From positions 21,643-85,642 of the forward strand of contig CANQQV010000006.1 of NCBI GenBank assembly GCA_947626095.1: DNA of 64,000 nt, in the 5' to 3' direction. Shown here piece after piece: positions 3,206 to 63,885 of this stretch; position 1 is the first letter of the stretch, and the number at the start of each line of letters is the position of its first letter. The position numbers and the translations under genes were made by a program. Below the pieces are notes generated by a model, which made no database searches, was not told the origin of the DNA, and was given only the letters and a program-made list of their open reading frames with translations. This stretch comes from an uncultured Bacilli bacterium (GTDB lineage: Bacteria; Bacillota_I; Bacilli_A; RF39; UBA660).

Positions 3206-5521
3206 ATGGCAAAGAAAGAAGAAGATCTTTTTGCTACTCTACAAGTAGTAAAAAGAAATGGTAAAAAAGTAGAATTTAATCCAACAAAAATTGCTATAGC
3301 AATCAAAAAGGGTTTTGATGATGTAATCGAAAAATCAATTGATGAAACTGGAGTAGCAAAATACTCTGAAAAAGATATGCAAAAAGTATTTCATGATGTT
3401 TTAGATCGAATTGAAAAAGATTATGCTGATAAAGATAAAATTAAAATTGAAGAAATTCAAGATTTGATTGAATCATCATTAAAGAGTAAAAAATATACAG
3501 ATGTATATGAAAGCTTTTCTAGTTATAGAGAAAGAAGAGCACAATCAAGAGAAGCTTTTACAGAAGATAAAAGATCTCATAAATTTTTAAAAACGTTAGA
3601 AGGACTTGCTTTAAAGAGTGCTTCAGAAGATGATACAAAAAGAGAAAATGGTAATATTGATGGTAACTCAGCAATGGGTACAATGTTACAATTTGGTTCT
3701 AATGTATCTAAGGAATTTTCTAAAACATATTTAATGAAGAAAAAATTTGCTGATGCTCATGATGAAGGTGATATCCATATTCATGATATGGATTTTGAAG
3801 CAATGGGTACAACAACTTGTTTACAAATAGATTTAGATAAACTATTTAAAGGTGGTTTCTCAACTGGTCATGGTTATTTAAGAGAACCAAATGATATTAT
3901 GAGTTATTCAGCATTAGCTGCTATAGCTATTCAATCTAATCAAAATGATCAACATGGTGGTCAAAGTATTCCATTATTTGATTATTATTTAGCACCAGGT
4001 GTTGTTAAAACATTTAGAAAACAACTTAAAATGACAATTCAAGATTTCTTAGATTATTCAGATTTTGCTAGTTTTGTTAATATGAAAACAGTTGAAGATG
4101 TTATTAATAAATTAACAACTATTGAAACACCTGTTGAAACTTTTGAAAAATTTTATAAAGAAAATGAGTCATTGAAAAGATTATTTACAATGGCATTAGA
4201 TAAAGCAGTTAAAAAGACTGATCGTATAACATACCAAGCAATGGAAGCATTTATTCATAACTTAAATACAATGCATTCAAGAGCTGGAGCACAAGTTCCA
4301 TTTAGTTCAGTTAACTTTGGTACTGATACTTCACCAGAAGGTCGTATGGTAATGAAAAATTACTTAATGGCTGTTGATGCTGGTTTAGGACATAGTGAAA
4401 CACCAATATTCCCTATATCAATATTTAAAGTTAAAGATGGAATAAATTATAATCCTGGTGAACCAAACTATGATTTATTTAAATTATCTTGTAAGGTATC
4501 TGCTAAAAGATTATTCCCTAACTTTGAATTTATAGATGCACCATATAATTTACAATATTATGTTCCAGGTAGACCTGAAACAGAAGTTGCAACAATGGGT
4601 TGTCGTACAAGAGTTATGGGTAATGTTGTTGATCCTGATAAACAAATTACACCAGGTCGTGGAAACTTATCTTTTACAACAATTAACTTAGTTAGATTAG
4701 GTATTAAACATGGTATTGTTGGTCCTAATGCTAAAGATAAAGCTGATATGAAAGGTTTCTATGAAGAGTTAGATGAAAAGATTGAATTATGTAAAGACCA
4801 ATTACTTGAAAGATTTGAAATTCAATGTAATAAGAGAGTATATAATTTCCCATTCTTAATGGGTCAAGGCAACTGGATGGATTCAGAAAAACTTAAACCT
4901 AATGATAAGTTAAAGAAAGTATTAAAACATGGTACTTTATCAGTTGGATTTATCGGTTTAGCTGAATGCTTAGTAGCTTTAATAGGAGAACATCATGGTG
5001 AATCAGAAAAAGCCCAAAAGTTAGGTCTTGAAATTATTGGCCATATGAGAAAGAAACTTGATGAATATAGTCAACAATATAAACTTAACTTTACTTGTTT
5101 AGCTACGCCTGCTGAAGGATTAAGTGGAAGATTTACTAAAATAGATAGAGCAATATATGGAAAGATTAAAGGTGTAACTGATCGTGAGTATTATACTAAT
5201 TCATTCCATGTACCAGTTTATTATAATATAACAATATCTAAAAAAATTAAAATTGAAGCTCCATATCATGCATTAACTAATGCTGGTCATATTAGTTATA
5301 TTGAGTTAGATGGAGATGTAACAGAGAATGTTGAAGCATTTGAATCTGTTATAAGAATGATGAAAGAAGCTGGAATGGGTTATGGAGCAATTAACCATCC
5401 AGTAGATAGAGATCCAGTTTGTGGATATGTTGGAGTTATTAAGGACGTATGTCCAGGTTGTGGACGTCGTGAGGGAGATCCAATTCCAGCAGAATTATTA
5501 AAGAATTTAAATAATAAATAA
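3206..5521 (+). CDS. nrdD: Anaerobic (class III) ribonucleoside-triphosphate reductase, large subunit lacking the glycyl-radical tail
   Basis: N-terminal ATP cone (VVKRNGKKVEFN), HIHD, QHGGQS, MGCRT finger loop, TPAEGLSGRF, YYTNSFH, C-terminal DPVC..CPGC; no RxxGY motif. Confidence 0.95.
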   Translation: MAKKEEDLFATLQVVKRNGKKVEFNPTKIAIAIKKGFDDVIEKSIDETGVAKYSEKDMQKVFHDVLDRIEKDYADKDKIKIEEIQDLIESSLKSKKYTDVYESFSSYRERRAQSREAFTEDKRSHKFLKTLEGLALKSASEDDTKRENGNIDGNSAMGTMLQFGSNVSKEFSKTYLMKKKFADAHDEGDIHIHDMDFEAMGTTTCLQIDLDKLFKGGFSTGHGYLREPNDIMSYSALAAIAIQSNQNDQHGGQSIPLFDYYLAPGVVKTFRKQLKMTIQDFLDYSDFASFVNMKTVEDVINKLTTIETPVETFEKFYKENESLKRLFTMALDKAVKKTDRITYQAMEAFIHNLNTMHSRAGAQVPFSSVNFGTDTSPEGRMVMKNYLMAVDAGLGHSETPIFPISIFKVKDGINYNPGEPNYDLFKLSCKVSAKRLFPNFEFIDAPYNLQYYVPGRPETEVATMGCRTRVMGNVVDPDKQITPGRGNLSFTTINLVRLGIKHGIVGPNAKDKADMKGFYEELDEKIELCKDQLLERFEIQCNKRVYNFPFLMGQGNWMDSEKLKPNDKLKKVLKHGTLSVGFIGLAECLVALIGEHHGESEKAQKLGLEIIGHMRKKLDEYSQQYKLNFTCLATPAEGLSGRFTKIDRAIYGKIKGVTDREYYTNSFHVPVYYNITISKKIKIEAPYHALTNAGHISYIELDGDVTENVEAFESVIRMMKEAGMGYGAINHPVDRDPVCGYVGVIKDVCPGCGRREGDPIPAELLKNLNNK

Positions 5522-8468: not shown

Positions 8469-8564
8469 CTTATATTATTATACTATAAAATATAATAATT
8501 TAAAATAAGGTCGTTTATTTACTAAGAATAGTTATTCATGGTATAATGGTAAAGGTGATTATAT

Positions 8565-9632
8565 ATGAACGAAAGTAATAATGGACGTGTTAGTTATCAA
8601 GTTGGGGGAAGAAAAAATACTGTAGAAGTTCCAACTAATAATCAACCTAGTATTAATGCAGTAATTAGTGATACTAAAGAGCCAGAAGTATTAGATGTTC
8701 CAGTTAATAATTTTGAAGTAAGTATTCTAGAACGCTATGGAAGAGATTTAACGGCGGTAGAGTATTTAACTGATCCTTCAATAGGAAGAGATAATGAAAT
8801 TAAACAAGTTATTATGACTTTGTTAACACCAGAAAAGAGTGCTTTATTAGTAGGTAAAGCTGGTGTAGGTAAAACATCTATTGTTGAAGGGGTAGCTTAT
8901 CGTATTCAAAAACATATGGTACCACAAGCATTAGAGGGGTATAAAATATATAAATTAAATGTAACTTCATTACTTGGTCAGACTGAATCTAATGGTCAAA
9001 TAGAAAATAGAGTTGATTTGTTAGTTAAAGAGTTAGCGAAGAAAAGTAAGACAATAGTATTTTTAGATGAAACCCATGTCTTAGTAAATAAAGATGGAGC
9101 AGAAAATGGTATCGATTTTGCGAATATGTTTAAAGCAGGATTAGACCGTGGGGAAATAAAAATGATTGGTGCAACAACTGATGAAGAATATGAACAATAT
9201 ATATTAAAAGATAGAGCGTTTTTAAGACGTTTTCAAAAGATAGATGTTGCTGAAGCTGATCAAGAAACAACAGTTAAGATATTAATGGGAACATATCCTA
9301 AAATAGAAGCTAAAACGGGAGTACATTTTGAATATACATCATTTGTTATTGAAAGAATAATGCGTTTTATTGTAGATATGACAGATGAATATAAAAGAAT
9401 ATATGAAATATCTAGTAGATATCCTGATATTTGTTTAACAATAGTTTCTAATGCTTTTACTTATGCTTTATTTGATAATGAGAATGTTTGTCGTATTAAA
9501 CATATTTATAAAGCAATATGTAATGCGAGAAATGTTTATGACGATGCAAAGAAGAAAGCAATTGAAAAGTTTAAAGTAGATTTTGCTGATTTAATTAGAG
9601 AAGAAAATGTTGATTTAACGGAAATAGGTTAG
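8565..9632 (+). CDS. ClpA/B/C-like AAA+ ATPase containing only NBD1
   Basis: [48 protein letters not shown]. Confidence 0.85.
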
Positions 9633-9641
9633 AGAATAGAA

Positions 9642-10727
9642 ATGGGAGATAAAATGGAAAAGATTAGAGTTTTGCAAATTGGTTGTGGCAAGATGAGTGT
9701 TTTTACAATGCGTTATGTATTTGAACATGGGGCAAAAATTGTCGGAGCTGTAGATATTAATCCTAAACTTATTGGTAAAGATATTAGTGAGGTAATGGGT
9801 GGAGAAAAATGTAATGTTACAATTGCTGGAGTTAATGATTTAGCCAATTATATTAAATCTAGTAAACCACATATTGCTATAATTACGACAATGAGTTTAT
9901 TAAATGATATTAAAGATTTAGTAAGGACTTGTGTTAGCTTAGGGGTTAATGTTATTACGACTTGTGAAGAAGCATTCTTTGCTAGTAATTCTAATCCAAC
10001 TATTTATCATGAATTAGATGTTTTAGCTAAAGCTAATAAAGTTACAATCACAGGATGTGGATACCAAGATATATTTTGGGGCAACTTAATTAGTACTTTA
10101 GCAGGAACAACACATAAAATTACGAAAATAAAAGGTTCTTCGTCTTATAATGTTGAAGACTATGGAATAGCTTTAGCTAAAGCTCATGGAGCTGGCTTAA
10201 CTTTAGATGATTTTGATAAGTTAGTAGCGGCTAGTGATAAAATAAGTGAAGAAGAACGAAATAATATTATAAAATCGGGTAATTATGCACCATCTTATAT
10301 GTGGAATACAGTAGGGTGGTTGGCTGATAAATTACATTTAAATATTACTAGTATGAAACAAGAATGTATACCACAAACGCATGTGGAAGATTTAAATTCT
10401 AATACTTTAAATATGACAATTAAAGCGGGTAATGCAACAGGAATGAGTGCTTTAGTAACAGCTGAAACTAAAGAAGGTATTACAATTGAAGCTGAATGTA
10501 TTGGTAAAGTATATGCACCTGATGAAGTAGATACTAATGAATGGACAATTGTTGGCGAACCAGAAACAACAATTACAGTAAGACAACCTAATACGGTAGA
10601 ACTTACTTGTGCAGATATTGTCAATAGAATACCTGATGTTATTAATGCTAGACCTGGTTTTGTATCAACTAGTGAAATGGGTGAACCAACTTATCGTGTT
10701 GATAGTTTAGAAAAATATCTTAAATAA
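9642..10727 (+). CDS. Dihydrodipicolinate-reductase-like / 2,4-diaminopentanoate dehydrogenase-like NAD(P)-dependent oxidoreductase
   Basis: GCGKM Rossmann motif, GVNVITTCEE, VNRIPDVINARPG C-terminus. Confidence 0.75.
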   Translation: MGDKMEKIRVLQIGCGKMSVFTMRYVFEHGAKIVGAVDINPKLIGKDISEVMGGEKCNVTIAGVNDLANYIKSSKPHIAIITTMSLLNDIKDLVRTCVSLGVNVITTCEEAFFASNSNPTIYHELDVLAKANKVTITGCGYQDIFWGNLISTLAGTTHKITKIKGSSSYNVEDYGIALAKAHGAGLTLDDFDKLVAASDKISEEERNNIIKSGNYAPSYMWNTVGWLADKLHLNITSMKQECIPQTHVEDLNSNTLNMTIKAGNATGMSALVTAETKEGITIEAECIGKVYAPDEVDTNEWTIVGEPETTITVRQPNTVELTCADIVNRIPDVINARPGFVSTSEMGEPTYRVDSLEKYLK

Positions 10728-10739
10728 GATATTTTTTTC

Positions 10740-10896
10740 TTGCATAATTCTTAAGAGTTTTATATAATGAAAGTGACTTTTTTGCAAGAAAACTACATTT
10801 ATATATTTTTACAACATGGGCTAGATAGAAATATCTGCATTTTTGCGTTGTAGATGTAGCTAGATTTTATAATCTAGTTTTTTTGCGTTGTAAAAA
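10740..10896 (+). promoter_or_regulatory. Promoter plus attenuator-like 5' leader of the ABC operon
   Basis: TTGCAT-17-TATAAT; terminator CTAGATT-ttat-AATCTAG-T7 (10860-10884) lies before the RBS; competing helices. Confidence 0.6.
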
Positions 10897-10916
10897 GGTT
10901 AGAAAGGAGTGTAAAA

Positions 10917-11897
10917 ATGTCTTTCATCAATGTTAAACACATTAAAAAAACTTTTAAAGTAGCAAAAAAACAAACAGGAATAAAAGCTACTTTAAAAAAC
11001 TTTATTAAAAGAGATTACAAATATATTGAAGCGATAAAAGATATCTCTTTTGATATTGAAGAAGGTAGTATAGTTGGTTATATTGGCCAAAATGGAGCTG
11101 GTAAATCAACTACTATCAAAATTTTATCAGGTATTCTAATACCAGATAGTGGAGAAGTTACAGTAAATGGACTTAATCCATGGAAAGATCGTAAGAAGTA
11201 TGTTTCATCAATTGGTGTTGTATTTGGGCAACGTTCACAATTATGGTGGGATATTCCAGCAGAAGATACTTTTGATTTATTAAAAGATATCTATAAGATT
11301 GATGAACAAAAATTTAGAAAAAATAAAGAATACTTAATAAAATTATTAAACATTGAAGATATCATTCGTATTCCTGTAAGACAATTAAGTCTTGGTCAAC
11401 GAATGCGCTGTGAAATAGCTGCTTCACTTTTACATGAGCCGAAAATATTATTTTTAGATGAACCGACAATTGGATTAGATGCAATATCTAAACAAATAGT
11501 GAGAGATTTTATCAAAAAAATAAATAAAGAACAAAAAGTGACAGTTATTCTAACCACTCACGATATGAGTGACATTGAAGCCTTAGCCAAAAGAATAATA
11601 ATGATTGGTAATGGGTGTGTTGTTTATGATGGTACGTTAAATAACTTAAAGAAAAAATATGATCATCATAAATATGTATCGGTTACAACAAAAACAAAAT
11701 TAAGTAAATTAAGAAAGAAAGGAATTATTAAGCAAGAAAAAACAGGAGAGGGCTACAAATTTATGATTGATTCTGATACTTTAGCTATTTCTGATTTTCT
11801 AAACTATTTATCACTAAAAATTGATATTAAAGATTTAGAGATTGATGATGAATCGTTAGATAATATCATTATTAATCTTTATCAGTCAATTGAATGA
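10917..11897 (+). CDS. ABC-2 type exporter ATP-binding subunit
   Basis: GQNGAGKST, LSLGQ, LFLDEPTIGLD, TTHD. Confidence 0.92.
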   Translation: MSFINVKHIKKTFKVAKKQTGIKATLKNFIKRDYKYIEAIKDISFDIEEGSIVGYIGQNGAGKSTTIKILSGILIPDSGEVTVNGLNPWKDRKKYVSSIGVVFGQRSQLWWDIPAEDTFDLLKDIYKIDEQKFRKNKEYLIKLLNIEDIIRIPVRQLSLGQRMRCEIAASLLHEPKILFLDEPTIGLDAISKQIVRDFIKKINKEQKVTVILTTHDMSDIEALAKRIIMIGNGCVVYDGTLNNLKKKYDHHKYVSVTTKTKLSKLRKKGIIKQEKTGEGYKFMIDSDTLAISDFLNYLSLKIDIKDLEIDDESLDNIIINLYQSIE

Positions 11898-12700: not shown

Positions 12701-13476
12701 TGAAAGTATATAAAGATTACCTAAAATTACATTTAAAATCTATTTTGGAATATAAAGCTTCGTTTATTTTATCGTTAATAGCACAAATATTTGTCTTCTT
12801 TACCTATTACTTTGTTATTTTAACTTTATTTGATAAGTTTAAGAATTTACAAGGATTTAATATATACGAAATATTACTTACTTTTAGTATAATTCATTTT
12901 GGTTATTCAATGAATGAAACATTTGCCAGAGGAATAGATCAATTTGATCGTTTGGTTGTTAATGGAGATTTTGATCGTATTTTACTTAGACCACAAAATA
13001 TTTTAATGCAAACAATGGGATTTCAAATAGATTATGTTAAAACAGCTAGAATCGTTCAAAGTTTAATTATTCTTATTTATGCACTGATTAGATTAGATAT
13101 TGAATGGAATATATTAAGAATATTATCTATTATATTAATGATTATAAGTAGTATTATTATATTCTTTTGTATCTTTTTAATAGCTGCTTCATATTGTTTT
13201 TTAACAGTTCAAGGTTTAGAAGTAAGAAATGTTTTTACAGATGGTGGTAAGCATTGTGCTCAGTATCCAATTGGGATATATAATAAGGCATTTAGAAGAG
13301 TATTTACCTTTATTATTCCTTATGCTTTAGTTAATTATTATCCTTTATTATACTTAATTGGTAAAAGTAATAATGCTTTATATGCTTTACTTCCTTTAGT
13401 AGTTATAATTTACTTAATACCTAGTATTTGGATCTTTAATAAAGGCTCAAAAAAGTATTTAAGTACTGGTTCATAA
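12700..13476 (+). CDS. ABC-2 family permease (DUF990-like)
   Basis: NGDFDRILLRP, YPIGIY, C-terminal YLSTGS. Confidence 0.85.
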   Translation: MKVYKDYLKLHLKSILEYKASFILSLIAQIFVFFTYYFVILTLFDKFKNLQGFNIYEILLTFSIIHFGYSMNETFARGIDQFDRLVVNGDFDRILLRPQNILMQTMGFQIDYVKTARIVQSLIILIYALIRLDIEWNILRILSIILMIISSIIIFFCIFLIAASYCFLTVQGLEVRNVFTDGGKHCAQYPIGIYNKAFRRVFTFIIPYALVNYYPLLYLIGKSNNALYALLPLVVIIYLIPSIWIFNKGSKKYLSTGS

Positions 13477-13479
13477 GAA

Positions 13480-13509
13480 AAAAGATTTTAGTTAATTCTA
13501 AAATCTTTT
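13480..13509. terminator. Bidirectional terminator
   Basis: AAAAGATTTTAG-ttaatt-CTAAAATCTTTT between convergent genes. Confidence 0.7.
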
Positions 13510-14149
13510 ATATTTTCATCTTTTTATAAAATAATTTAATATAGATGATTAAATAAGCCATAGATATAGCATAACCAGCTAAGACATCGCTAGCGAAATG
13601 AACACCTAAATAGATTCTACTAATACCGATTAATAAAACTAATAGAGCGATTAAAGAAGAATATAATAGTTTGTATTTCATTTTCATTTTTTTATGATCA
13701 ATGATATAAAGAAAAAAGCCATAATAAGCTAAACTAATCATAGAGTGTCCTGATGGGAAACTATAGCCGTTTTCAATTATTAAATTAATATCTAGTGGAC
13801 GATCACGAACAAAGATAAACTTTAATGTTTGATTAAGGATATAGCATAGTAAAATATTTAAAGCAATTAGAAAAGCATTCTTTTTACTTTTACTAAAGAT
13901 CATGATTAGGATAGTTGATATTAGAATAAACCAGGTACTACATAAGAAAGATATAAATTTAAAGAAGATAGTAACTGGCTTACATTTTAGTTTGATAATC
14001 ATATTATAAATATAATTATCGAAGTTACTTACATTATTTGTAAGAAGTAAATACATCATAAAAAGGAAAATTAAGATACTTAAAGTAAAGATAACTTTTT
14101 TCCAATATTTACGGCATAAAGACAAAGTTTTATTCATCACTATCACCAA
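13508..14149 (-). CDS. PAP2-family membrane phosphatase
   Basis: KxxxxRxRP, SFPSGH, SRIYLGVHFASDV. Confidence 0.92.
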   Translation of the reverse strand: MVIVMNKTLSLCRKYWKKVIFTLSILIFLFMMYLLLTNNVSNFDNYIYNMIIKLKCKPVTIFFKFISFLCSTWFILISTILIMIFSKSKKNAFLIALNILLCYILNQTLKFIFVRDRPLDINLIIENGYSFPSGHSMISLAYYGFFLYIIDHKKMKMKYKLLYSSLIALLVLLIGISRIYLGVHFASDVLAGYAISMAYLIIYIKLFYKKMKI

Positions 14150-14699
14150 AATAGATATCTAATATTTCTTTATATCTTTTAATTAACTTAGGATTAGCTT
14201 CTTTCTTCTTAGCTATATTGTAGACTTCACGATATAACCAACAATTTTCTTCTTTGGTACCACCGGTTGTTTTCCAAATACGATCGCCGTTTTTTAAGTA
14301 GTTATTATAATATGCTAACAAAAGATGTAATTTGTCAGCGACCATGATGTTAATAACATTGATATCATCGTTATTTCTTATTCTTCTAATATATTCTTTT
14401 TTTCTTTCTAACCATTTAGTTATTGACATATCTTCCGATAAATCAGAGACCATATCTGCTACTAAAGTACCAAATTTTTCTTCAATCTCTTCATAACCAT
14501 ATTCTGTATCATTAATAATATCGTGTAATAAAGCGGATACTAAAACATCTTCAGCAGCGTTAATGTCTCTAATCATTGTATAAACAACCATGGCGTGAAA
14601 GCATTTATCTATATTTTCGCTTTTCATTTTAATTCCGCGATTAGCTTTAACCATAAAATATATGGCTTCTTCAACACTTGAATACATATTACCACCCAT
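14130..14699 (-). CDS. HD-domain protein, small alarmone hydrolase (Mesh1/SpoT-HD)-like
   Basis: SALLHD, IEEKFGxxVADMVxxLSED, ADKLH. Confidence 0.75.
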   Translation of the reverse strand: MGGNMYSSVEEAIYFMVKANRGIKMKSENIDKCFHAMVVYTMIRDINAAEDVLVSALLHDIINDTEYGYEEIEEKFGTLVADMVSDLSEDMSITKWLERKKEYIRRIRNNDDINVINIMVADKLHLLLAYYNNYLKNGDRIWKTTGGTKEENCWLYREVYNIAKKKEANPKLIKRYKEILDIYFGDSDE

Positions 14700-14846
14700 T
14701 CTCTACCTTATATTATATATTTTATATTAAAATAGGGGATTTGCCAAAGAAAAATGTCAAATGAGAAGAAATACTTGACAAGTATAGACTAGAATTAGCT
14801 TATGAATGAAAAAATTATTTAAAATATTTAATCGTTTAATTTGCAC

Positions 14847-14888
14847 TATGTGCAATATTACTATCAGTAGTTACTGTTAGTGCAGCTA
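14847..14888 (+). repeat. 42-bp direct repeat, copy 1 (signal-peptide h/c region)
   Basis: TATGTGCAATATTACTATCAGTAGTTACTGTTAGTGCAGCTA, identical to 16173-16214. Confidence 0.95.
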
Positions 14889-15946
14889 ATACTTGCGATC
14901 TACCAGCTGATGGTAAAAACTGGACAAAAGCTGGTGAATGTGAAGCAACAGTTAATGGTGTTGATTTTGACGATGCAACTACAGCTTGGGGTGTTGCAGC
15001 TAGAGATGGTGGAACTATTAAACTTTATATTGATATTCCAAGAAATACTGCATCTGCTATAGCAAAATCTTTAGTAATGGATTTAAACGGACACAAAGTG
15101 ACTTTTGGTGCTGGTGGTCAATATGCAGCAGACAATGGTGTAACTTTAACTGTAAAAAATGGCGAAGTGGTTCTTGGTAATCCTACTGTAGTTGCATTTA
15201 TTGTAAAAACTGGAGGAAGTTTGAACTTAACAAACCTAAAAATTACAGGTGCTGCTTATAGTTGGTCTTTAGTAGAAAATAGCGGCATTTTAAATATCGC
15301 TAGTGATGTTAATGTAGATTTACCAAAAGCTAATGTTGTTTATACTTCTAAAGCTGGTGCTAAAACTACTTTAAATGGTAAATATAATGTTAATACTATA
15401 GTTGGAGTTGATCCTAGAACTGATGAAGTAGAAAGAAAAGGATCAGTTTCTACAATAGCTGTTAATGGTACATATACTACAGCAGCCAATGCATTAAGCG
15501 TTACTGATGGTGTTGTTGTTACTGTTGCTGCTGATATTGAAAGTGATAATTCTATAGCAGTTGTTAATGGTGGTAGCTTAGTAGTAAATAGCGGTGATTT
15601 ATATTCTGCTGCAAGTGCTTCTGCAAATGTTCCAGCTATTAAAGTTGCAGGATCTACTGATGCTACAAAACTAACTGTTAATGGCGGTACTATTGCTAGT
15701 AAAAACAATTATGCATTATATTTAATGAATACAAAAGCTGCTTATTCAATTACTGATGGTACATTTGAAAGTGCTAAAGCTCTTAGTGCTGCAATTGGAC
15801 TATACACTGGTTTCACTGAAACTAAAGATGGTGAAACACATGTTGTTCCAGCATTAAAAGGAATCTTAACTGGTGGTAAATATTTGAATAATATTATTGC
15901 TAAAGTATTAAATGCTGATCAAGGTACTGTTGTTGTTTCAGATGAA

Positions 15947-16136
15947 TTAGTTGCAGAAGGTTACACAGTTAAAGAAGAAGATAACTACAAAGTAGTAGTT
16001 TCAACAAAAGCAGAAAATGATAAGAAACCTGCTGCTAAGCCAGAAGAACAAGCTCCAAACACATATGATGCAGGTCTTGTATATATGGGATTAGCATTAA
16101 GTGCAATCGGTGCAAGTGTTGTTTCTGTTAGAAAAT
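15947..16136 (+). repeat. 190-bp direct repeat, copy 1 (anchor region)
   Basis: Matches 17378-17567 with 4 mismatches counted by eye. Confidence 0.92.
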
Positions 16137-16172
16137 TAAGAAATAACTAATTATTGATTTAAGAAAACGAAG

Positions 16173-16214
16173 TATGTGCAATATTACTATCAGTAGTTAC
16201 TGTTAGTGCAGCTA
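16173..16214 (+). repeat. 42-bp direct repeat, copy 2
   Basis: Identical to 14847-14888. Confidence 0.95.
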
Positions 16215-17377
16215 GTAGTGCTTGCTATATTGAAGGAAAAGAAGCTCAATCATCATCTAAACCAGTAAAATGTGTTGCTGAAGTTAATGGTGAAGGTTAC
16301 GACAATGTAGGTAATGCTATGACTGAAGCTATAGCAACAGGTGGATATATTACTTTATATGATAATGTAACTTATTCTACTGATAAAACTGTAGCAAAAA
16401 ATTTAACAATGAATTTAAATAATCATACTGCAGTATTTGGTACTAATAAAATGACTGTTGCTAAAGATGTTACATTAAGTGTTAATGGTGGTAAAGTTAC
16501 TGCTGGTAATGTTGTTCCATTTGTTGTTAATGGTACTTTAGTATTAGAAAATGTTACTGCAACAACTGATACTCAATTGCTAGAAAATAATGGAACAGTT
16601 ACTATTACAAATGGTACTTATACAACTGAAGCTAAAACACTTTCAGTAATTGAAAATAAAGGTACATTAACTGTGACAAATGCTAAATTTGTTGCACAAA
16701 AATTAACTACAGGTAGTCTTGTTAATAATGCTGGAACAGTAACTATGACTAATTTAGATGTTGATACAACTGGTGCATTACTTACAGTTGCAGCTCATGG
16801 TTCAAAAGCTACATTAGCTGGTGGATTATATGATGCTACTGCTGTTGTAAAAACAGCTTTAAGTGCACCACCTGCATCTCATGGAGGTGTAGCAGCTACT
16901 GTTACTATCAATGGTGGTACTTATAACACTACAGGTACAGCTTTATATGCAAATTATGGCATGAGTTTAAATGTTACTGGTGGTACTATAACTTCTAAAG
17001 ATCAAGGATTACATTTATATGATGCTACTGCTGTTATTTCAGGTGGTACTATCAATTCTACTACAGCTACAGTTATAACAACAGGTGCTGGTAATGCTTC
17101 TTTAACAGTATCAGGTGGAACTCTTAAATCTGAAGGTTCTTATCCATTATATTTCCAAAATAATAATGCAACATATGCTATAAGTGGTGGAACATTTGAA
17201 GCTAAAATTGAAGATCGTCCAGCTATTATGATTAGCAACTTAACAACTATTAAAGATGGTAAGACTGAAGTTGCTAAAGCTTACAAAGGAATTTTAACTG
17301 GTGGTAAGTACTTAAATAATATTATCGCTGGAGCAATTGTTGATAATAAAGGTGCAACAGTTGATGTAACTAATGAT

Positions 17378-17567
17378 TTAGTTGCAGAAGGTTACACAGT
17401 AAAAGAAGAAGGTAACTACAAAGTAGTAGTTTCAACAAAAGCAGAAAATGATAAGAAACCAGCTGCTAAACCAGAAGAACAAGCTCCAAACACATATGAT
17501 GCAGGTCTTGTATATATGGGATTAGCATTAAGTGCAATCGGTGCAAGTGTTGTTTCTGTTAGAAAAT
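17378..17567 (+). repeat. 190-bp direct repeat, copy 2
   Basis: Matches 15947-16136. Confidence 0.92.
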
Positions 17568-17569
17568 AT

Positions 17570-17601
17570 AAAAGAGTTCTAATTATTTTTAGAACTCTTT
17601 T
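17570..17601. terminator. Bidirectional terminator
   Basis: AAAAGAGTTCTAA-ttattt-TTAGAACTCTTTT. Confidence 0.7.
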
Positions 17602-19237
17602 TATATTTACTTTGTTCGTTTAACTCTTGATAGTATAAGACAGTATTCTTATCATAGTATCTTATTTCACCACTAGGTAACATTAACATTCTTTCAACAC
17701 CTAAATTATCAACAAATTCAGGATTATGAGAAACGATTAACATAGTACCTTCATATTCTTTAAAAGTATCAGCAATAATTTTTTGGGTTTCGGGATCTAA
17801 ATGGTTAGTAGGTTCATCTAAGATAAGTAGGTTAGCGCCGGTTAGAGCTAGCTTAGCTAAAGCTACACGACTTCTTTCACCAGGAGATAGGTATGATACT
17901 TTTTTATATACTTCATCACCAGAGAATAAGAAGTTACCTAAAAATGCTCTTAATTCTTTAGTACTTAGATTAAATTCAGAGAAGTTTTCTAAGATTATTT
18001 TTTCGTTATCAAGTAGTTCGTGTTCTTGGGCATAATAACCGATTTCAGTTTTTTCATTTAAGTCAATTGTGCCAGATAAAGGTGTTAATGAACCGACAAT
18101 TAACTTTAGAAGAGTTGATTTACCAATACCGTTTTCACCGACAATTAAGAATTTTTCGCCTCGACTTAAATCAAAAGTTAAGTTATCTAATAAAATATGA
18201 TTTTCATTATAACCAAATTTTAAGTTTTCAACTTTTAATGGAACAACGCCACTTGGATGATTAATTTTTATTTTAAATCTAGTAGTTTTTTGTTTCTTTT
18301 CTAGAGTAACTTTATTTTCTTCTAAACGAGCAAGTTTTTTCTGACGGTCTTTAGCTATTCGAGCTTTCTTTTCATTACCACCAATATATTTAGCAATTAT
18401 TCTTTTTAATTTTTCTTCTTCTTTAACTTGTTTATCATATATTCTTTCTTGAGTTTTTAATCGCTCATTTCTGATTTTCATATACTTTTCATAGTTACCA
18501 GGAAATAATTCCATTTTATGAGTAGCTTTATCAACATATAATGTTTGAGTAGTTACTTGATCTAAGAATTCAATATCATGAGATATAACTAAGATAGTAC
18601 CATTATAATTTCTTAAATAGTTAATAATATAATCTTTGGTATCAATATCTAAGTGGTTAGTAGGTTCATCTAAGAGTAATATTTCGGGATTAGAATAGAG
18701 TAGTCTAGCAAAGGCGATTTTACTTTTTTGACCTCCTGATAGATTGCATAGTTTCATATCAAGTAATTCACTATCTATATTCATACCGGTTACTATTTTA
18801 AGTAAAATATTTTCGGCGTTGTAAACTTCATAGTATTCTAGTTTTTCTTGAAGTTTGCCAATTTGTTTCATTATATATTTTATTTTTTGTTCATCAGTTT
18901 CTGTACTGGCATCAGTATAGGCTTTAGATAATTCAGCTTCTAATTTTTTAATTGGTCTACCATCTAAAAGATAATCAAAGACTGATATATCCATACTAGG
19001 TATTTCATCGCTGATTACTTGAGGTAAAAAACCAATACGAGTACCAGGTTTTAAAATTATTTTACCATTATCAGGTTCTAATTTACCCATAATTAATTTA
19101 AAGAAAGTTGATTTACCAGCACCATTCATACCAATAATACCAACTTTTTCTTTATCTTTAATTTGAATAGTGACATCATCGAATATTTCTTGCAAACCAA
19201 AAGACATAGATAAGTTTTTAATATTCATATGTATCAC
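17579..19237 (-). CDS. ABC-F family ribosome-associated ATPase
   Basis: Two ABC domains (GMNGAGKS/LSGGQ/LDEPTNHLD and GENGIGKS/LSPGE/LDEPTNHLD), PGNY linker, no TM. Confidence 0.92.
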   Translation of the reverse strand: MIHMNIKNLSMSFGLQEIFDDVTIQIKDKEKVGIIGMNGAGKSTFFKLIMGKLEPDNGKIILKPGTRIGFLPQVISDEIPSMDISVFDYLLDGRPIKKLEAELSKAYTDASTETDEQKIKYIMKQIGKLQEKLEYYEVYNAENILLKIVTGMNIDSELLDMKLCNLSGGQKSKIAFARLLYSNPEILLLDEPTNHLDIDTKDYIINYLRNYNGTILVISHDIEFLDQVTTQTLYVDKATHKMELFPGNYEKYMKIRNERLKTQERIYDKQVKEEEKLKRIIAKYIGGNEKKARIAKDRQKKLARLEENKVTLEKKQKTTRFKIKINHPSGVVPLKVENLKFGYNENHILLDNLTFDLSRGEKFLIVGENGIGKSTLLKLIVGSLTPLSGTIDLNEKTEIGYYAQEHELLDNEKIILENFSEFNLSTKELRAFLGNFLFSGDEVYKKVSYLSPGERSRVALAKLALTGANLLILDEPTNHLDPETQKIIADTFKEYEGTMLIVSHNPEFVDNLGVERMLMLPSGEIRYYDKNTVLYYQELNEQSKYKKSSKNN

Positions 19238-19284: not shown

Positions 19285-20160
19285 CTATTTTGGTATTCGT
19301 TTTAGAACAAAGTCTTTTTCGCCTTGACGATTAATATATTCAAATAAATTATTGGTATCATCAACTAAATCATAACCGCTTATACCTATTTCATCAATTG
19401 TAGGAATTATAATATCATTTTTTTGTGGTTTAATAATTTCTTTGATAGTTTGAAAGTTACTTGGTTTGCCATAACCAGAAGCCCAGCCACTATAAGTAGC
19501 ATCTGGTGTTTCTTCGATAAGACGGAAGTTTAGTCTTCTAATCCAGGATGGATGACATAGAGGGAAATATAATTTTTGGGGATTTAAACGTTCGTTTTCT
19601 TGTTTTAAAATAAATTCACTAAAATGTAATTGATCCTCAACAGTAGACATTTCAAAAATATGTAAGTCAATGCTATATCCTAAGTTTTCTAATAATTCAA
19701 CAATAGTTAAGATGATGGCTCCACGATTAAAGATAGCATTAGCTCTAGTATAACCATAAAAGGAAGTATTTAAATAAATATCTATTTTCTTTCTTCTAGT
19801 TTGTGTTTTGTTTAACATAGATAGGGGACTTCCTTCTAAGTAAGCTTTTACATCAGGAGCATAACCGATATAATCATTAAATTGTTTATTACGTTTTTTA
19901 CTCATTTTAATATATTTTTCTAATTTAATTTTTAACTCGATTAATTTTTCAAATTCTTCATGATAACCATATAGACACAATTTATAGGCTTCATCTAGAG
20001 AGTAGGTGTGAGTAAAGTTATAATCATCTTTAATACTGCATGGATTGCTAAAGGTATTTTGACATATGTTATGGTTTTTTAGATAATCGATAAATTCTGA
20101 TAAAGAATAAAATTTATAATGCATAACTTTATAGTTATTTTGACGATATAAACGATACAT
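19285..20160 (-). CDS. Putative vWA/CobT-like partner of a MoxR-type ATPase
   Basis: GYAPDVKAYLEGSP, IDIYLNTS, NRGAIILTIVELLENLGY, HPSWIRRL; starts 2 bp after the AAA gene stop. Confidence 0.55.
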   Translation of the reverse strand: MYRLYRQNNYKVMHYKFYSLSEFIDYLKNHNICQNTFSNPCSIKDDYNFTHTYSLDEAYKLCLYGYHEEFEKLIELKIKLEKYIKMSKKRNKQFNDYIGYAPDVKAYLEGSPLSMLNKTQTRRKKIDIYLNTSFYGYTRANAIFNRGAIILTIVELLENLGYSIDLHIFEMSTVEDQLHFSEFILKQENERLNPQKLYFPLCHPSWIRRLNFRLIEETPDATYSGWASGYGKPSNFQTIKEIIKPQKNDIIIPTIDEIGISGYDLVDDTNNLFEYINRQGEKDFVLKRIPK

Positions 20161-20162
20161 AA

Positions 20163-21923
20163 TTACCTACTTAATTTAAGACTTTTAAGACCTTGATAAT
20201 ATATATTACTTGAATTAATGTTTTGCATATTACCGATTATCATATTTAAATCATCTTGACCTAAATTTTTGACAACATTAGAAGTTAAGATATCTGGAAC
20301 TGGTATTTTATTCAATTCTTTTTTATATACTTTACCAATTCCTCTGGTTGAGACAACGTGTGGGATTTTTGATTTTAAAACAGCATCTCTAAATGACCAC
20401 ATAAATTTTAAAATTTGTTCACTAGGATATAAACATTCTTCTAGTTTACGATCATAATCAAAGAAGATATTATCAAAACGATCTAGAGTAGCAGCATCTA
20501 AAGCAGTACGACCAACATATTCTAAGTCAGCACCTTTACCCCAAGTATTAGCAGCAGCTATAATATGAAAGTTTGGATGTCTATCAATTGTTTCGTGAGG
20601 GAAAGCCATATAACCATTAGCTAAAGCTGAGTTAATAACAATTAAAGCTGAAGGATCCGAATTATCAATTTCATCTAAGAAGAATAAACCACCATTTTTA
20701 AAAGCTTTATAAAATTCAGTTTCACGATAAGTACCACCAGCATCAATAAAACCAGTTAGTTTAAATTCATTTGAAGCATTATTAGTATAATACATATGAA
20801 GACCTAAAGATTCTGCTACTTGTGAGACAGCAACGTTTTTACCACTACCAGCTGGTCCTATTAACATGATAGGTTCATCTAAAGCAGTTTGTCTTAGTAT
20901 TTGTTCATATTTTTCGTGGTAGAAACCACCAGTTGTATGAGCTATTTCCGTATTATTTATGATAATACTATGAGATACTGGGACGTTAATAGTCTTAGTA
21001 TAATCTTCAAGGATTTTATCAAAGATAGTTCTTAGTAAATGATTAATATTATTTTCTGTATTAAATTCTTCGATAGCATGCTTAATTAATTCGAGTAAAG
21101 CCTTTTTGGTTTCAGCATTTAATTCCTTAGTTAAATAATCACTTATCTTTTTTTGAGGATCAGGTGAAGCTAAATAATCTTCTAAGTTTTTATTTATTTT
21201 ATCTTTTACTGCTTCATTAGTAATAGAGAATAGTAGGGCATTTAAATTATCTAATAAGTTATCAGCATTTTGTCTAGTACGAGGAATAAATGAATCATCT
21301 TTAATTTTTGTACCATCAATATTAAATTCTTCACCATTAACGATATAGGTATTATTTTTTACTTCTTCTATTTCATTACAGAAATAGCTTAAAATATCAC
21401 GACTATTTGAATACATTACTTCATGATTTATTTTAGTATAACCTATATATAGATGAGTGTTTTCATTATTTGGTTTAGTAACACCAGCAATTAATTCTTC
21501 AGAATTAGCATCCCAAATAACAGAACAAAAATGCATGTAATTACTAAGGATTTTAAATACTTCACATTTATGATCACGATAAAGTAAATTAATTAATCTT
21601 TGATATCGATCACTATCATCAAGACGATAACGGCGAAAGTCATTAATAGCATTTGTTATTTCGTCTTGATTATAACCACTAACAGTTAATATTTTATTAT
21701 TAGAATTCCAGAAGGGATCACGATCTTCCATATAACTATCGTAGACAATTTTAGCGAAAATTATCCCTGTATTTGATATCTCTTTGTGATTAATAGAGTA
21801 GTTATATGGACAATTGGAATTAAGCCTTCTTTGAATGTCTTCATAGCTAAATTCTCTTCCTTTATATGCTATGAAAACAGTTCCACTTTTTTCATAGTCT
21901 TCCATATTTTCTCTTCCTATCAT
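20163..21923 (-). CDS. MoxR/CobS-like AAA+ ATPase with N-terminal class II GATase-like domain
   Basis: GPAGSGKN, LFFLDEID, IIAAANT, LDAATLDRF; N-terminal FCSVIWD...LYIG...VMYSNS pattern. Confidence 0.75.
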   Translation of the reverse strand: MIGRENMEDYEKSGTVFIAYKGREFSYEDIQRRLNSNCPYNYSINHKEISNTGIIFAKIVYDSYMEDRDPFWNSNNKILTVSGYNQDEITNAINDFRRYRLDDSDRYQRLINLLYRDHKCEVFKILSNYMHFCSVIWDANSEELIAGVTKPNNENTHLYIGYTKINHEVMYSNSRDILSYFCNEIEEVKNNTYIVNGEEFNIDGTKIKDDSFIPRTRQNADNLLDNLNALLFSITNEAVKDKINKNLEDYLASPDPQKKISDYLTKELNAETKKALLELIKHAIEEFNTENNINHLLRTIFDKILEDYTKTINVPVSHSIIINNTEIAHTTGGFYHEKYEQILRQTALDEPIMLIGPAGSGKNVAVSQVAESLGLHMYYTNNASNEFKLTGFIDAGGTYRETEFYKAFKNGGLFFLDEIDNSDPSALIVINSALANGYMAFPHETIDRHPNFHIIAAANTWGKGADLEYVGRTALDAATLDRFDNIFFDYDRKLEECLYPSEQILKFMWSFRDAVLKSKIPHVVSTRGIGKVYKKELNKIPVPDILTSNVVKNLGQDDLNMIIGNMQNINSSNIYYQGLKSLKLSR

Positions 21924-24341: not shown

Positions 24342-25829
24342 TTAATAACATGGTCCATGACGATTTTTAGGGTATTTGTTTTCTAATCTATATACATCAT
24401 CACGATCGACTAATACTAAAGGGTATTGTTTAAACCAAGATGGTAAATTTTCTGGGCGATTGGTATCAGCGTCTTTATAAGTATCTAGTAGCATACAGTT
24501 ATTACCGCAAGTACCATTTATTAGAGTATCCATACTGTAGTAGCCTAATTTTGTTAATTCATGAAGAAAATTACTAAAGACATATGTTGGAATGTTTTGG
24601 GCTGATTTGGATAAATATTTTTGAACTTCTAAACCAGCAACAACAATACCATTTTTATCTCTGACATAGTCTTCTTCGTAATTTTTAGCTATTAAATAAA
24701 GGTTAGGACAAATTATTTTTTCATAAGACCATTTAGTTTTAATTAATTTAATAACGTAATCACCGATACGGTAGCAAGATAGAGTAGCACCACTACTTAA
24801 ATATCCTGTTTCTTTACTATGACTTAAGTCTAAATATTTCTCAACATAACTTTGAAGTTTATGACCTAAGTTATGTGAATAAATACCACTTAAAGTAAAA
24901 TCCCATTTAGGATCAGTATCTGGTTTTTGAAAAAGGTTAATTGTTTTGGCGAATTGATCAATTAGGTCTTTAGATACTGAGTCGGCATAGTGATGATAGA
25001 TAGTAAATTGGTAATCAATTGAACTATTAAATAGACGATCGGCATCTTTTTTGAACTCATTTATTTTTTCATCATTTCGAGCAAATGTATAGCTAGATTC
25101 ACCAGTTTTTATTCGGTCATATTTTAGGAGTTTGCCAGCTAAAGTATTTTCTTTATAGTGAGAAAGAATATATTCTTTTAAAGATAACCAAATATTTTTA
25201 TCCGGAAGATTTTTAAAAGCTAAAATAGCTAAGTTACAGATATCTTCTATATCCATTAAAGTTGGGATAAAAGTTAGTTGTTCATATTCTTTATACGTTA
25301 CACTAGTTAAGTATTTAGTAAAATCATCATAGATGGTATTAATTGTATTAGGGTGGTGTTCTAAGATATAAGCCATAAATAAATATCTGATATGAAGATT
25401 CTCGTGAAGATAAAAGAATTCAATTAAATCATAATTATTATCAATGTCTTCAAAGGTAAATTCAATAATTGCTTTTAGAGTATCTTCATCTCTTTGTTCT
25501 AATTCAGAATGGTGACTTAAAATATATTTTTGACCCCATGTAGTATTGTGAAGAAGGTTAAGAAGATGTTCTTTAGTTAAGTAATTAAAGCTTAAATATT
25601 TATTTAAAATATATATAGTTTCTTTTTGATATTCATCCATATCGTAGATGATAGCGAAACAAAAGTAGTAATGTTTATCAATTAGTTTTTTTAAAAAGCC
25701 TTTGACTATTTCTTTTCTATCTGGATCTTTTCTAACATAGGATATTATACTATCGTAGTCATAAGAAGTTAAAGAGAAAACAAAATCGACTTTGCCTTTT
25801 TTTAGGTATTCTATTACATTAAAAGCCAT
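24342..25829 (-). CDS. Hypothetical protein with C-terminal kinase-like domain
   Basis: SSGATLSCY..YVIKL..YSMD..NNCMLL..LVLVD order matches the protein-kinase-like fold. Confidence 0.55.
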   Translation of the reverse strand: MAFNVIEYLKKGKVDFVFSLTSYDYDSIISYVRKDPDRKEIVKGFLKKLIDKHYYFCFAIIYDMDEYQKETIYILNKYLSFNYLTKEHLLNLLHNTTWGQKYILSHHSELEQRDEDTLKAIIEFTFEDIDNNYDLIEFFYLHENLHIRYLFMAYILEHHPNTINTIYDDFTKYLTSVTYKEYEQLTFIPTLMDIEDICNLAILAFKNLPDKNIWLSLKEYILSHYKENTLAGKLLKYDRIKTGESSYTFARNDEKINEFKKDADRLFNSSIDYQFTIYHHYADSVSKDLIDQFAKTINLFQKPDTDPKWDFTLSGIYSHNLGHKLQSYVEKYLDLSHSKETGYLSSGATLSCYRIGDYVIKLIKTKWSYEKIICPNLYLIAKNYEEDYVRDKNGIVVAGLEVQKYLSKSAQNIPTYVFSNFLHELTKLGYYSMDTLINGTCGNNCMLLDTYKDADTNRPENLPSWFKQYPLVLVDRDDVYRLENKYPKNRHGPCY

Positions 25830-25884: not shown

Positions 25885-26754
25885 TTAGAGATTAGTACTT
25901 TGTTTTTTAATAAGTTTAGCGTGAACGACAATGCGATCACCACTATTATTTTTACAAGTAGATAAAGTAAGAATTTTATCTTGCTCATTAACTTCAGTCT
26001 TAATTGGAGCTTTATTTCTTGATTTCATTGTTTGTAACCATTCTATTTTATCTTTAGAATTACTGAAATTAGTTTTTAAATAGTAGGTTTCTTCTTTAAT
26101 GGTATAAATAGAAAATATTTGAAAAACATAATTTGTTTTAGGTGTTGATAACCATATAACGTAATTATCTTTATTATTTTGCCATTCGTTAGTTAAAACA
26201 GTTCTTAATGATCCAAACATCGTACCATCTTTACGACCATGACCATAGATGATAGTATTGTCATCTAAAGAATCAAGATTATTGCGATAGTCCATAAAAA
26301 TCCAACCAGCATTATTTTTATGATTATTAAAAGAATGATTTAAATAATAAGTATTATTTTTACTTTGAACTACTGGATAATCAATATTAGTATTATCAAG
26401 ATGAATGTATCCAACAGTATTTTGGTTGGTTTTAAGATATTCATCAAAAGAAATATTATAGAACGGTTTATTTGCATAGTACCAATAATCATTATATATT
26501 TCATCAGGAGCGTTGATTAATTCGCTATTGCTTGTATTTATATTTATTTTTGTTTGAGTGTTAAGATCATTGATTATTTTATTTGTATTATGATTGTCGA
26601 TAAGCCATGTAATATTTTGATATAAAGTATAAATAAAAGTAAAGATTAGAATGGTAAGGATGATTATGTAAGGAAGTAATTCAATTATCTTTTTTTTAGT
26701 TATTTTTTTCTTAGAAAATTTCTTTCTTTTGGTTTTATTGGCCATATTAATCAC
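25885..26754 (-). CDS. srtB: Class B sortase
   Basis: IDYPVVQ, YYLNH, GWIFMDYRN, IIYGH, MFGSL, LTLSTC, RIVVHA. Confidence 0.9.
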   Translation of the reverse strand: MINMANKTKRKKFSKKKITKKKIIELLPYIIILTILIFTFIYTLYQNITWLIDNHNTNKIINDLNTQTKININTSNSELINAPDEIYNDYWYYANKPFYNISFDEYLKTNQNTVGYIHLDNTNIDYPVVQSKNNTYYLNHSFNNHKNNAGWIFMDYRNNLDSLDDNTIIYGHGRKDGTMFGSLRTVLTNEWQNNKDNYVIWLSTPKTNYVFQIFSIYTIKEETYYLKTNFSNSKDKIEWLQTMKSRNKAPIKTEVNEQDKILTLSTCKNNSGDRIVVHAKLIKKQSTNL

Positions 26755-35576: not shown

Positions 35577-35591
35577 AAAGGTGGAAAAAAG

Positions 35592-37235: not shown

Positions 37236-37671
37236 AAAATATATCTTACCGGTTGTAAATATTTTAATATCAGTATTGGGGATTATTTCATTGTTTGTGT
37301 TTAAGATGAGTGAATATGTTGTTTATATTATGATGATGACGGCGATGATTGGATGGATAATAACTTATCTGGTTCCTTTTATTACAGGAATTGCTTTATT
37401 AAATAAATCACATTATAAAAGGGCTTTAGTTTTAAATGTTGCTAGTTTGATAATGGGAATTTTTATAATTGTGATGATTGCGATTTTATATGATAAACAT
37501 TTTTTATTTATGTTAGTAGCTTATATTGTTATAGTAGTAATTAATATTGTTAATATAATATATATTAGTAGAATTCTAAAAAAAGATTATGATAAAAATA
37601 AAAGTAAGAGAAAGAAAGAAAAAGATAAATTAAAAAAGATGAAGGAAGAGAATAATGGTGCAATCTTATAA
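37225..37671 (+). CDS. Four-TM membrane protein
   Basis: Hydrophobic segments; SD GGAGGT. Confidence 0.75.
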   Translation: MKVKKYILPVVNILISVLGIISLFVFKMSEYVVYIMMMTAMIGWIITYLVPFITGIALLNKSHYKRALVLNVASLIMGIFIIVMIAILYDKHFLFMLVAYIVIVVINIVNIIYISRILKKDYDKNKSKRKKEKDKLKKMKEENNGAIL

Positions 37672-63827: not shown

Positions 63828-63885
63828 TACTTCACCACCTAAAAAAATTAAATATATTTTACCATTTTTTAACAAATAAATAAAG

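Follow-up and report, generated by a model that had tools for sequence, protein, structure and literature searches.

Tandem leader-less cassettes for a predicted sortase-anchored surface protein in an uncultured gut Bacillota: a candidate silent archive

A 64,000-nucleotide (nt) stretch of contig CANQQV010000006.1 (assembly GCA_947626095.1), from an uncultured bacterium of the Bacilli, contains two head-to-tail copies of a surface-protein gene, both on the + strand and both silent as encoded. We refer to the whole stretch as the window, and coordinates count from window position 1. The two copies, here called cassettes 1 and 2, look like stored spare coats, since their long reading frames stay intact without any start that could be used, and related uncultured gut bacteria share the layout. 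Our favoured reading, to which we assign a probability of about one half, is that the locus is an archive of silent cassettes for recombinational variation of a sortase-anchored β-helix surface protein. Coat switching by silent cassettes is known from few pathogens, namely Borrelia, Neisseria, Anaplasma, Treponema and the mycoplasmas.

Two tandem units with conserved ends and diverged cores

The first-pass annotation of the window, made from the sequence alone, described two units that share an identical 42-nt box at the 5' end and a 190-nt box with four mismatches at the 3' end, with 22 nt between the stop codon of cassette 1 and the second 5' box. All of these features were confirmed (Table 1). 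The identity of the 5' boxes ends with a first mismatch at 14889, and the match extends to 45 nt with one mismatch. A search of the 64-kb window with the 39-nt core of this box, allowing up to three mismatches, returned two matches, both exact and both on the + strand, compared to none in 100 shuffles. No inverted copy of the 5' box is present in the window. The longest exact run within the 3' boxes is 97 nt, and their homology can be followed at a weaker level back to 15926 and 17357, respectively (211 nt, 11 mismatches).

The strong divergence between the boxes was also correctly noted. The translations of cassettes 1 and 2 share 41% amino-acid identity overall, with near-identical ends and a middle of common layout in which about 35–65% of the core nucleotides are identical, against 96–99% at the 3' end. 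Cassette 1 encodes the distal half of a signal peptide, a predicted β-helix core and a predicted sorting signal (PNTYD, a hydrophobic segment and RKLRNN). Cassette 2 lies in the same frame, separated from cassette 1 by two TAA codons. It was originally considered to be cut off at SVRK, where the homology to cassette 1 does end, but its frame continues for 18 further codons through a terminator hairpin. Its C-terminal tail retains a hydrophobic segment followed by the charged RKYKR, with no obvious defect.

Both units are silent as encoded

In-frame ATG, GTG and TTG codons are absent before codon 80 of cassette 1 and before codon 53 of cassette 2. The earlier statement that cassette 2 has neither a ribosome-binding site nor a start codon is upheld, as there is no Shine-Dalgarno (SD) sequence in the spacer and the first canonical in-frame start, at 16319, is located downstream of the signal peptide. 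Both units had been described as start-less and apparently not translatable as secreted proteins. Silence holds for both, but cassette 1 does keep an ATG-Lys-Lys leader, although it is out of frame and lacks an SD sequence or a workable promoter. This leader, at 14806, begins MKKLFKIFNRLI and resembles the charged n-region of a signal peptide. Its frame is +1 relative to that of cassette 1, i.e. one base out of register, and overlaps the 5' box. A 9-nt unit, AAAATATTT, is repeated 2.2 times within the leader (14812–14831, + strand) and could be the trace of a small duplication that upset the original leader.

A promoter consensus scan identified no sigma-70-like + strand site just upstream of ATG 14806; the only + strand match before it (14689–14716, 9/12) is ~90 nt upstream. 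An SD sequence is also absent before this ATG, though most of the well-defined genes in the window have one. As the upstream neighbours (13508–14149 and 14130–14699) are on the opposite strand, read-through transcription into the locus is not expected, and an Rfam scan of 13400–18000 revealed no element. With its expression signals damaged and its body intact, cassette 1 looks like a former head gene.

A rare family of predicted sortase-anchored β-helix proteins

Neither cassette has a match that reaches a curated cut-off in Pfam or NCBIfam (none in NCBIfam, and one weak, sub-threshold match each in Pfam). The family is rare, with 17 proteins at E ≤ 1e-3 in a set of 5.8 billion sequences (7,994 candidates scored) and 36 representatives at E ≤ 1e-3 in a set of 1.84 billion. 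The cassettes in the window contain only the distal half of a Sec signal peptide, which is whole in the full-length members P0008, P0017 and P0018, each starting with the conserved signal peptide MKNLKLFVFALCAVLLSVVTVNA.

Proteins of the family end in a predicted tripartite sorting signal, in which a motif precedes a hydrophobic stretch and a basic tail; in the window, these are PNTYD, ~20 hydrophobic residues and RKLRNN. The wall or membrane anchor proposed by the first-pass annotation would accordingly be a sorting signal of the sortase type and not just a membrane anchor. The motif is P-x-T-x-D family-wide (PNTYD in the window; NPGTSD, PKTND, NPQTYD, PATFD and AKTGD elsewhere). It is close to, yet distinct from, the NPXTG and NPQTN motifs that the passages of PMC11987632 used here assign to class B sortases. 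A class B sortase gene is located 8 kb from the cassettes, and its product is likely to process the sorting signal of the family. In a related genome (locus L004, see below), two class B sortase genes are found directly upstream of a family gene.

Several other proteins carry similar end signals. A 223-residue secreted protein (L004 7276–7947, − strand), encoded beside these two sortase genes, has NPDTSD near its C-terminus, followed by a hydrophobic segment and KKA at the end; therefore, the P-x-T-x-D signal is common to unrelated proteins. P0019, P0020 and P0030 combine the signal peptide and anchor of the window type with different cores. The 495-residue open reading frame (ORF) that adjoins the sortase gene of the window (24342–25829) is without a match in Pfam, NCBIfam and PADLOC.

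An AlphaFold2 model of cassette 2, based on 16 aligned sequences, consists of nearly all strands (mean pLDDT 83.1, pTM 0.78). Among the matches listed by Foldseek against the Protein Data Bank (PDB), most are β-helix proteins, including PfbA, tailspikes and alginate epimerases or lyases. These matches are weak (best E 0.014, TM 0.34–0.42), and the structure search fixes only the general fold class. The best is PfbA of Streptococcus pneumoniae (4mr0_A; probability 0.98, E 0.014, TM 0.34–0.36, 13% identity). According to the model, the cassette product would share with PfbA the character of a Gram-positive right-handed β-helix surface protein; however, the structural match is weak, there is no sequence-family relation and PfbA is a single conventional gene. 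Neighbours in the atlas are hypothetical proteins from Bacillota and include, at 0.92, clusters of Beta_helix and Pectate_lyase_5. We read the family as adhesin-like right-handed β-helix surface proteins, with sortase anchoring and adhesion as their predicted properties.

The cassette layout recurs in related bacteria

A search with the anchor region identified 16 proteins from 63 candidates. Fourteen of them have at least 75% anchor identity, two of which are the window's own. Among the 12 others, all from other contigs, five have a complete signal peptide (P0008, P0017, P0018, P0019 and P0020) and seven start internally, within the mature protein (P0007, P0009, P0011, P0012, P0013, P0015 and P0016), just as the two cassettes of the window are themselves recorded in databases with internal starts. 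Three of the internally starting copies (P0007, P0009 and P0015) are on one contig of 27,967 bp. In a second sub-lineage, four proteins begin with MVGGVKA, the last part of a signal peptide that is whole in P0014 and P0026.

From the 12 pattern matches of a second genome scan, six loci were retrieved (L001–L006), all in records titled "MAG: uncultured Bacilli bacterium" (MAG, metagenome-assembled genome). L001, L002 (two genes) and L003 contain ordinary full-length family genes, each with its own promoter. L004 has a head gene (9965–11275) with a TTGACA-N17-TATAAT promoter, an SD sequence and a complete signal peptide. Only 8 nt past its stop codon is a cassette whose 5' end is a box within the signal-peptide sequence (MVLMVGGVKA). 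All five full-length relatives seen as DNA have a TTGACA-N17-TATAAT promoter, a strong SD sequence and an in-frame leader. L005, in the same MAG as L004, contains three cassettes followed by 77 nt from the start of a fourth, and L006 contains two. In the arrays of L005 and L006, each cassette begins at the mid-signal-peptide box directly after the preceding hydrophobic anchor, and the odd C-terminal tails of some copies (e.g. ...NGRWR) are the next box read out of frame. The frame offset between neighbouring cassettes is 0 in the window and +1 or +2 elsewhere. The layout is kept in two sub-lineages with different box sequences. The box in the second lineage measures 26–38 nt and contains in-frame ATG codons, so that "signal-peptide-truncated" is a more exact term there than "start-less".

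The final 77 nt of L005 match L004 exactly from position 9999 onward. Consequently, the 5' end of one cassette has two left neighbours, a promoter with leader in L004 and a preceding anchor in L005. An archived cassette copied at an expression site, a mixed population or two strains binned together could each account for this arrangement, and an exact overlap of this kind would be what an assembler leaves at a branch of its graph. The first-pass annotation predicted a full-length copy with promoter, ribosome-binding site and intact signal peptide, accompanied by further start-less cassettes; these exist in the related MAG (L004 and L005), but the window contains no full-length copy.

Other genes were observed at these loci. 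A HipA_C-domain gene (L005 10132–11325, − strand) lies between cassettes 1 and 2 of L005, and the sorting signal of cassette 1 is lost there. In L001, two similar pyrimidine-rich stretches ~0.5 kb in length (4886–5400 and 8524–8839) bracket the full-length family gene and an AAA_14/DUF4143 gene. A large serine recombinase gene (821–2428, − strand) and a small toxin-antitoxin-like pair are found upstream, and the whole may be a mobile unit. In L003 (5372–8200, + strand), a penicillin-binding-protein-like ORF ends early, and a gene for a large serine recombinase comes directly after it, as would be expected from the insertion of an element into the ORF.

Intact frames and homogenised ends

The leader-less 5' junction can be seen in seven cassettes (both cassettes of the window, the second of L004, the first three of L005 and the second of L006). 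All seven have uninterrupted frames of 377–486 codons, compared to 34–70 stops in the other two frames. Their cores are only 30–56% identical to one another. As the cores are far diverged and the junctions homologous, the leader-less unit would itself have been duplicated long ago. About 4% of point changes create a stop; neutral divergence of the cores would thus be expected to leave about 9–14 stops per copy, and the probability of finding none is 1e-4 to 1e-6. As a caveat, the cores may have diverged in live genes and moved in later, which would itself be recombination within the family.

The ends have been homogenised at the DNA level within genomes and the cores have not. Synonymous divergence (dS) is ~0.1 in the 3' box and 0.5–1.4 in the core, with no differences in the 13 codons of the 5' box. 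Nucleotide identity at the 3' end is 95–99% within a genome and 76–87% between MAGs, whereas cores are 35–65% identical either way. P0011 hints at a mosaic, being 96–100% identical to cassette 1 in the flanking segments and 32–61% in the middle, where it is nearer to P0009 and P0012, a pattern that comes from few sequences. A DNA-level search for mosaics inside the cores detected weak patches of 76–88% identity in few pairs, which are suggestive, not decisive.

Proposed mechanism and alternative explanations

In the archive that we favour, each cassette is a near-complete coding body between a short 5' box and a longer 3' box, with no promoter, ribosome-binding site or start codon and with only the second half of the signal peptide. 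It would be expressed only once homologous, RecA-type recombination through both boxes has joined its core to a single promoter-plus-leader unit, either by gene conversion from the silent donor into the expression site or, within a tandem array, by box-to-box deletion or unequal exchange. Unit 1 would be a former head gene that has lost its promoter spacing, SD sequence and leader register, and unit 2 would never have been more than a cassette. The purpose would presumably be surface variation in the gut, antigenic or adhesive. The silent antigenic-variation locus proposed by the first-pass annotation agrees with the silence of the units, the recurrence of the layout, the tandem arrays in MAGs, the open frames and the homogenised ends, whereas the transfer of cores to an expression site, its direction and its dependence on RecA are steps that we infer. 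A broader claim, that a walled gut Bacillota lineage runs true cassette switching of a sortase-anchored β-helix coat protein with boxes in the signal peptide and over the sorting signal, we hold tentatively, at slightly less than even odds.

Several observations weigh against such an archive. No switching event, variant junction or transcript is on record for this genome. The 64-kb window contains no expression site, and a genome scan with the anchor peptide gave 57 pattern matches of which none was confirmed, in a collection without this lineage. No database protein combines a full signal peptide with the N-terminal 100 residues of cassette 1 (of 306 candidates, none reached E ≤ 0.01), and the seven internally starting database proteins are known as proteins alone. 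Two cassettes are far fewer than in the classical archives. The 5' box is short (42 nt, and smaller still in the other lineage) and thereby close to the minimum length at which RecA-type exchange is efficient. The two left neighbours seen in L004 and L005 may reflect two strains binned together. Other lineages (L002 and L003) have tandem paralogues as ordinary full-length genes with their own promoters, which indicates that the cassette layout is not a rule across the family. Lastly, the ratio of nonsynonymous to synonymous divergence (dN/dS) in the cores is high (0.44–1.03), which fits diversifying selection and relaxed constraint equally and is uninformative at this divergence.

The cassettes could also be the debris of birth-and-death evolution, i.e. 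5'-truncated copies produced by unequal or illegitimate recombination, dead on arrival and not yet decayed, with ends recently converted from live paralogues and no role as donors. Such debris would explain the lesions of the decay type in cassette 1 (the 9-nt promoter spacer, the missing SD sequence and the out-of-register leader), the loss of the anchor of L005 cassette 1 beside the inserted HipA_C gene, the core dN/dS near 1 in many pairs and the fact that no expression site is known for this genome. However, all lesions of cassette 1 fall within ~60 nt of expression signals and none in its 1,308-nt frame, and an internal stop or frameshift is found in none of the seven leader-less cassettes despite the divergence of their cores. 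The homologous junctions also imply old duplications of a unit that was already leader-less, and the preservation of one layout in two sub-lineages with different boxes is hard to reconcile with decay. We consider this explanation unlikely, though it deserves to be taken seriously. It is improbable that only cassette 2 is silent and that cassette 1 is a local expression gene, switched off or misread through a single-base error in the register of its leader (a phase-variable or strain-specific switch, or a consensus error). An ATG-Lys-Lys leader does stand at the place expected for the n-region, off by a single base in its register; it contains an A6 run and a near-duplication of 9 nt, and a head gene followed by a cassette is the layout of L004. 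Nevertheless, the register would have to change between 14840 and 14878, where homopolymers do not exceed 3 nt and short tandem repeats are absent; the ATG is preceded by neither an SD sequence nor a workable promoter, in contrast to all five full-length relatives seen as DNA; and the other long genes of the window give no sign of a frameshift-prone assembly.

It is very improbable that the cassettes are translated in place by unusual means, be it recoding, stop read-through, re-initiation past the upstream stop or a non-canonical start. The shared register of the two cassettes, with only two TAA codons between them, and the in-frame ATG codons in the box of the other sub-lineage (MVLMVGGVKA) would be in keeping with it. 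On the other hand, TAA is the main stop of the window (38 of 49 long ORFs), the box in the window has no in-frame ATG, GTG or TTG, the frame offsets between neighbours vary (0 here; +1 and +2 elsewhere), and no Rfam element is found in 13400–18000. A product started at the box would, moreover, have a signal peptide with no charged n-region and only half of its hydrophobic core. We give scarcely any credence to an assembly artefact in which the boxes allowed alleles of a single gene from different strains to be joined into a false tandem. Exact repeats of 97 nt (3' box) and 42 nt (5' box) might mislead an assembler, and contigs of related MAGs do break inside these repeats, but the tandem is at 14.8–17.6 kb of the 64 kb with ordinary genes on both sides, and the database entries of the window's own proteins place them on a contig of 85,642 bp. 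The anchor-to-box type of junction recurs in three other assemblies with different sequences, and the 22-nt spacer, which belongs to neither allele, must exist in the reads.

Four further mechanisms were rejected. The absence of an adjacent recombinase, noted in the first-pass annotation, extends to all 50 ORFs scanned in the window, none of which has an integrase or resolvase domain. As there is also no inverted box, and all cassettes are co-oriented, a site-specific inversion switch or shufflon is excluded for this layout. A slipped-strand contingency switch finds no run longer than 3 nt or tandem repeat within 14840–14878, the stretch in which a change of register is required; both the A6 run and the 9-nt repeat are upstream of the in-frame TAA at 14837. 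An alternative code with read-through of TAA is not tenable, since TAA ends 38 of the 49 ORFs of at least 150 residues (TAG 9, TGA 2) and its treatment as sense doubles the long frames, the sign of a true stop. Treating TGA as sense adds only five long frames; TGA stops are rare, and table 11 fits. A polyprotein or a programmed frameshift across cassettes is inconsistent with the frame offsets between neighbours.

Comparison with known systems

By sequence, the cassettes belong to none of the vlhA, vmp, pilE/pilS, msp2 and vls families. The closest in its working would be vlhA of Mycoplasma synoviae, described in the passages of PMC4534519 used here as one intact gene with about 70 promoter-less, silent tandem copies; the homologous family of M. 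gallisepticum is described there as tandem full-length genes, each with its own promoter. On this partial account, both systems have co-oriented tandem copies that lack a promoter and a 5' end, located either next to the one complete gene or away from it, and the complete tandem genes of M. gallisepticum parallel L002 and L003, as opposed to the cassette lineages of L004–L006 and the window. The M. synoviae protein is a lipoprotein haemagglutinin, whereas the protein considered here is an unrelated, predicted sortase-anchored β-helix of a walled host. There are two cassettes in the window and 4–5 in the related MAG, each of which encodes nearly the whole mature protein including the anchor, and recombination among them is presumed.

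The vmp genes (vsp/vlp) of Borrelia hermsii have upstream and downstream homology sequences, with the 5' sequence at the start or signal-peptide region. Their silent copies lack a promoter, and a downstream pseudogene can be activated by deletion (PMC4534519, in part). To that extent, the two systems share a short 5' and a second 3' homology that bracket a variable body, promoter-less silent copies and a possible deletion route in a tandem pair. They differ in that Borrelia uses a telomeric expression site on a linear plasmid and lipoproteins, compared to a chromosomal context and a sortase signal here. In vlsE of Borrelia burgdorferi, silent cassettes act by gene conversion, and conserved segments flank variable ones. 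The donors of Neisseria pilE/pilS and Anaplasma msp2/p44 are without promoter and ribosome-binding site, some of them in tandem, and yield mosaic products by gene conversion, as far as the same source was drawn on (PMC4534519). Donors of this kind, with conserved segments flanking variable ones, resemble the cassettes; however, they are partial gene segments instead of near-complete bodies, and their hosts are diderm or wall-less pathogens.

The recombination site of the Mycoplasma pulmonis vsa and M. agalactiae vpma systems is near or in the signal-peptide region. These systems rely on site-specific inversion, with silent genes lacking a 5' end, in the relevant passages of PMC4534519, and are similar insofar as a single promoter and leader are coupled to different bodies. 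Inversion cannot work here, as the box occurs in direct orientation only, with no inverted copy and no recombinase domain in the 50 ORFs. The nearest case described in Bacillota is the tandem lipoprotein-like (lpl) cluster of Staphylococcus aureus, in which a conserved intragenic sequence is the site of homologous recombination that shuffles variable regions (Tsuru and Kobayashi 2008, PMC2568036). The likeness lies in a tandem paralogue cluster with a conserved block that drives shuffling. The lpl genes, however, are complete and separately expressed, their conserved block is central and not at both ends, and the parts of that paper used here mention no leader-less copies. No description of such a cassette system in Bacillota was found in the full-text literature, supplements not covered.

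If such switching is real, surface variation by silent cassettes would be described for the first time for a cell-wall-anchored protein from a commensal of the Gram-positive type, with an origin independent of the mycoplasma, spirochaete, Neisseria and Anaplasma systems. Silent-cassette switching would then extend to uncultured walled gut Bacillota and to sortase-anchored, adhesin-like proteins, suggesting that commensals too vary their surface against host immunoglobulin, phages or shifting attachment sites. With two boxes and a 1.3-kb unit, the system is small and well defined. A practical consequence is that gene callers assign false internal starts to cassettes, so that MAG annotations wrongly present the surface repertoire as short, cytoplasmic "hypothetical proteins".

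Features of the locus and neighbouring genes

Table 1. Positions of the cassettes, their boxes and associated features in the window
Feature	Position	Strand	Description
Promoter remnant	14775..14795	+	TTGACA 14775–80, TAGAAT 14790–95, spacing 9 nt
Out-of-register leader	14806..14880	+	ATG-Lys-Lys frame, 24 codons, TAG stop inside 5' box
Cassette 1	14840..16150	+	436 codons (14840–16147) and TAA (16148–16150); opens after TAA 14837–39
5' box, copy 1	14847..14888	+	42 nt; encodes distal signal-peptide segment CAILLSVVTVSAA
3' box, copy 1	15947..16136	+	190 nt; encodes stalk and sorting signal
Spacer	16151..16172	+	22 nt; second in-frame TAA at 16160–62; no start, no SD
Cassette 2	16163..17623	+	486 codons (16163–17620) and TAA; leader wholly absent
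5' box, copy 2	16173..16214	+	42 nt; identical to copy 1
3' box, copy 2	17378..17567	+	190 nt; homology to copy 1 ends after SVRK
Two-way terminator hairpin	17570..17601	.	13-bp stem; common to cassette 2 end and convergent ABC-F gene 17579–19237 (−)
Class B sortase gene	25885..26754	−	TIGR03064, 176 bits (cut-off 153.75); Pfam Sortase; 8 kb from cassettes

PADLOC results on neighbouring genes have no bearing on the cassettes. Just downstream of the ABC-F gene is a gene pair (19285–21923, − strand) encoding a DUF7192 protein and a 586-residue AAA_5 (dynein-related/McrB-like) ATPase, without a PADLOC match. An 814-residue AAA_13/SMC-like ATPase (61431–63875, − strand) matches the PADLOC candidate defence family PDC-S06 (5e-47). 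The region 30080–38000 (+ strand), which holds AddAB-like nuclease/helicase genes and three unassigned ORFs, has a GC content of 21–26% and a GC skew of 0.40–0.46, well off the window average.

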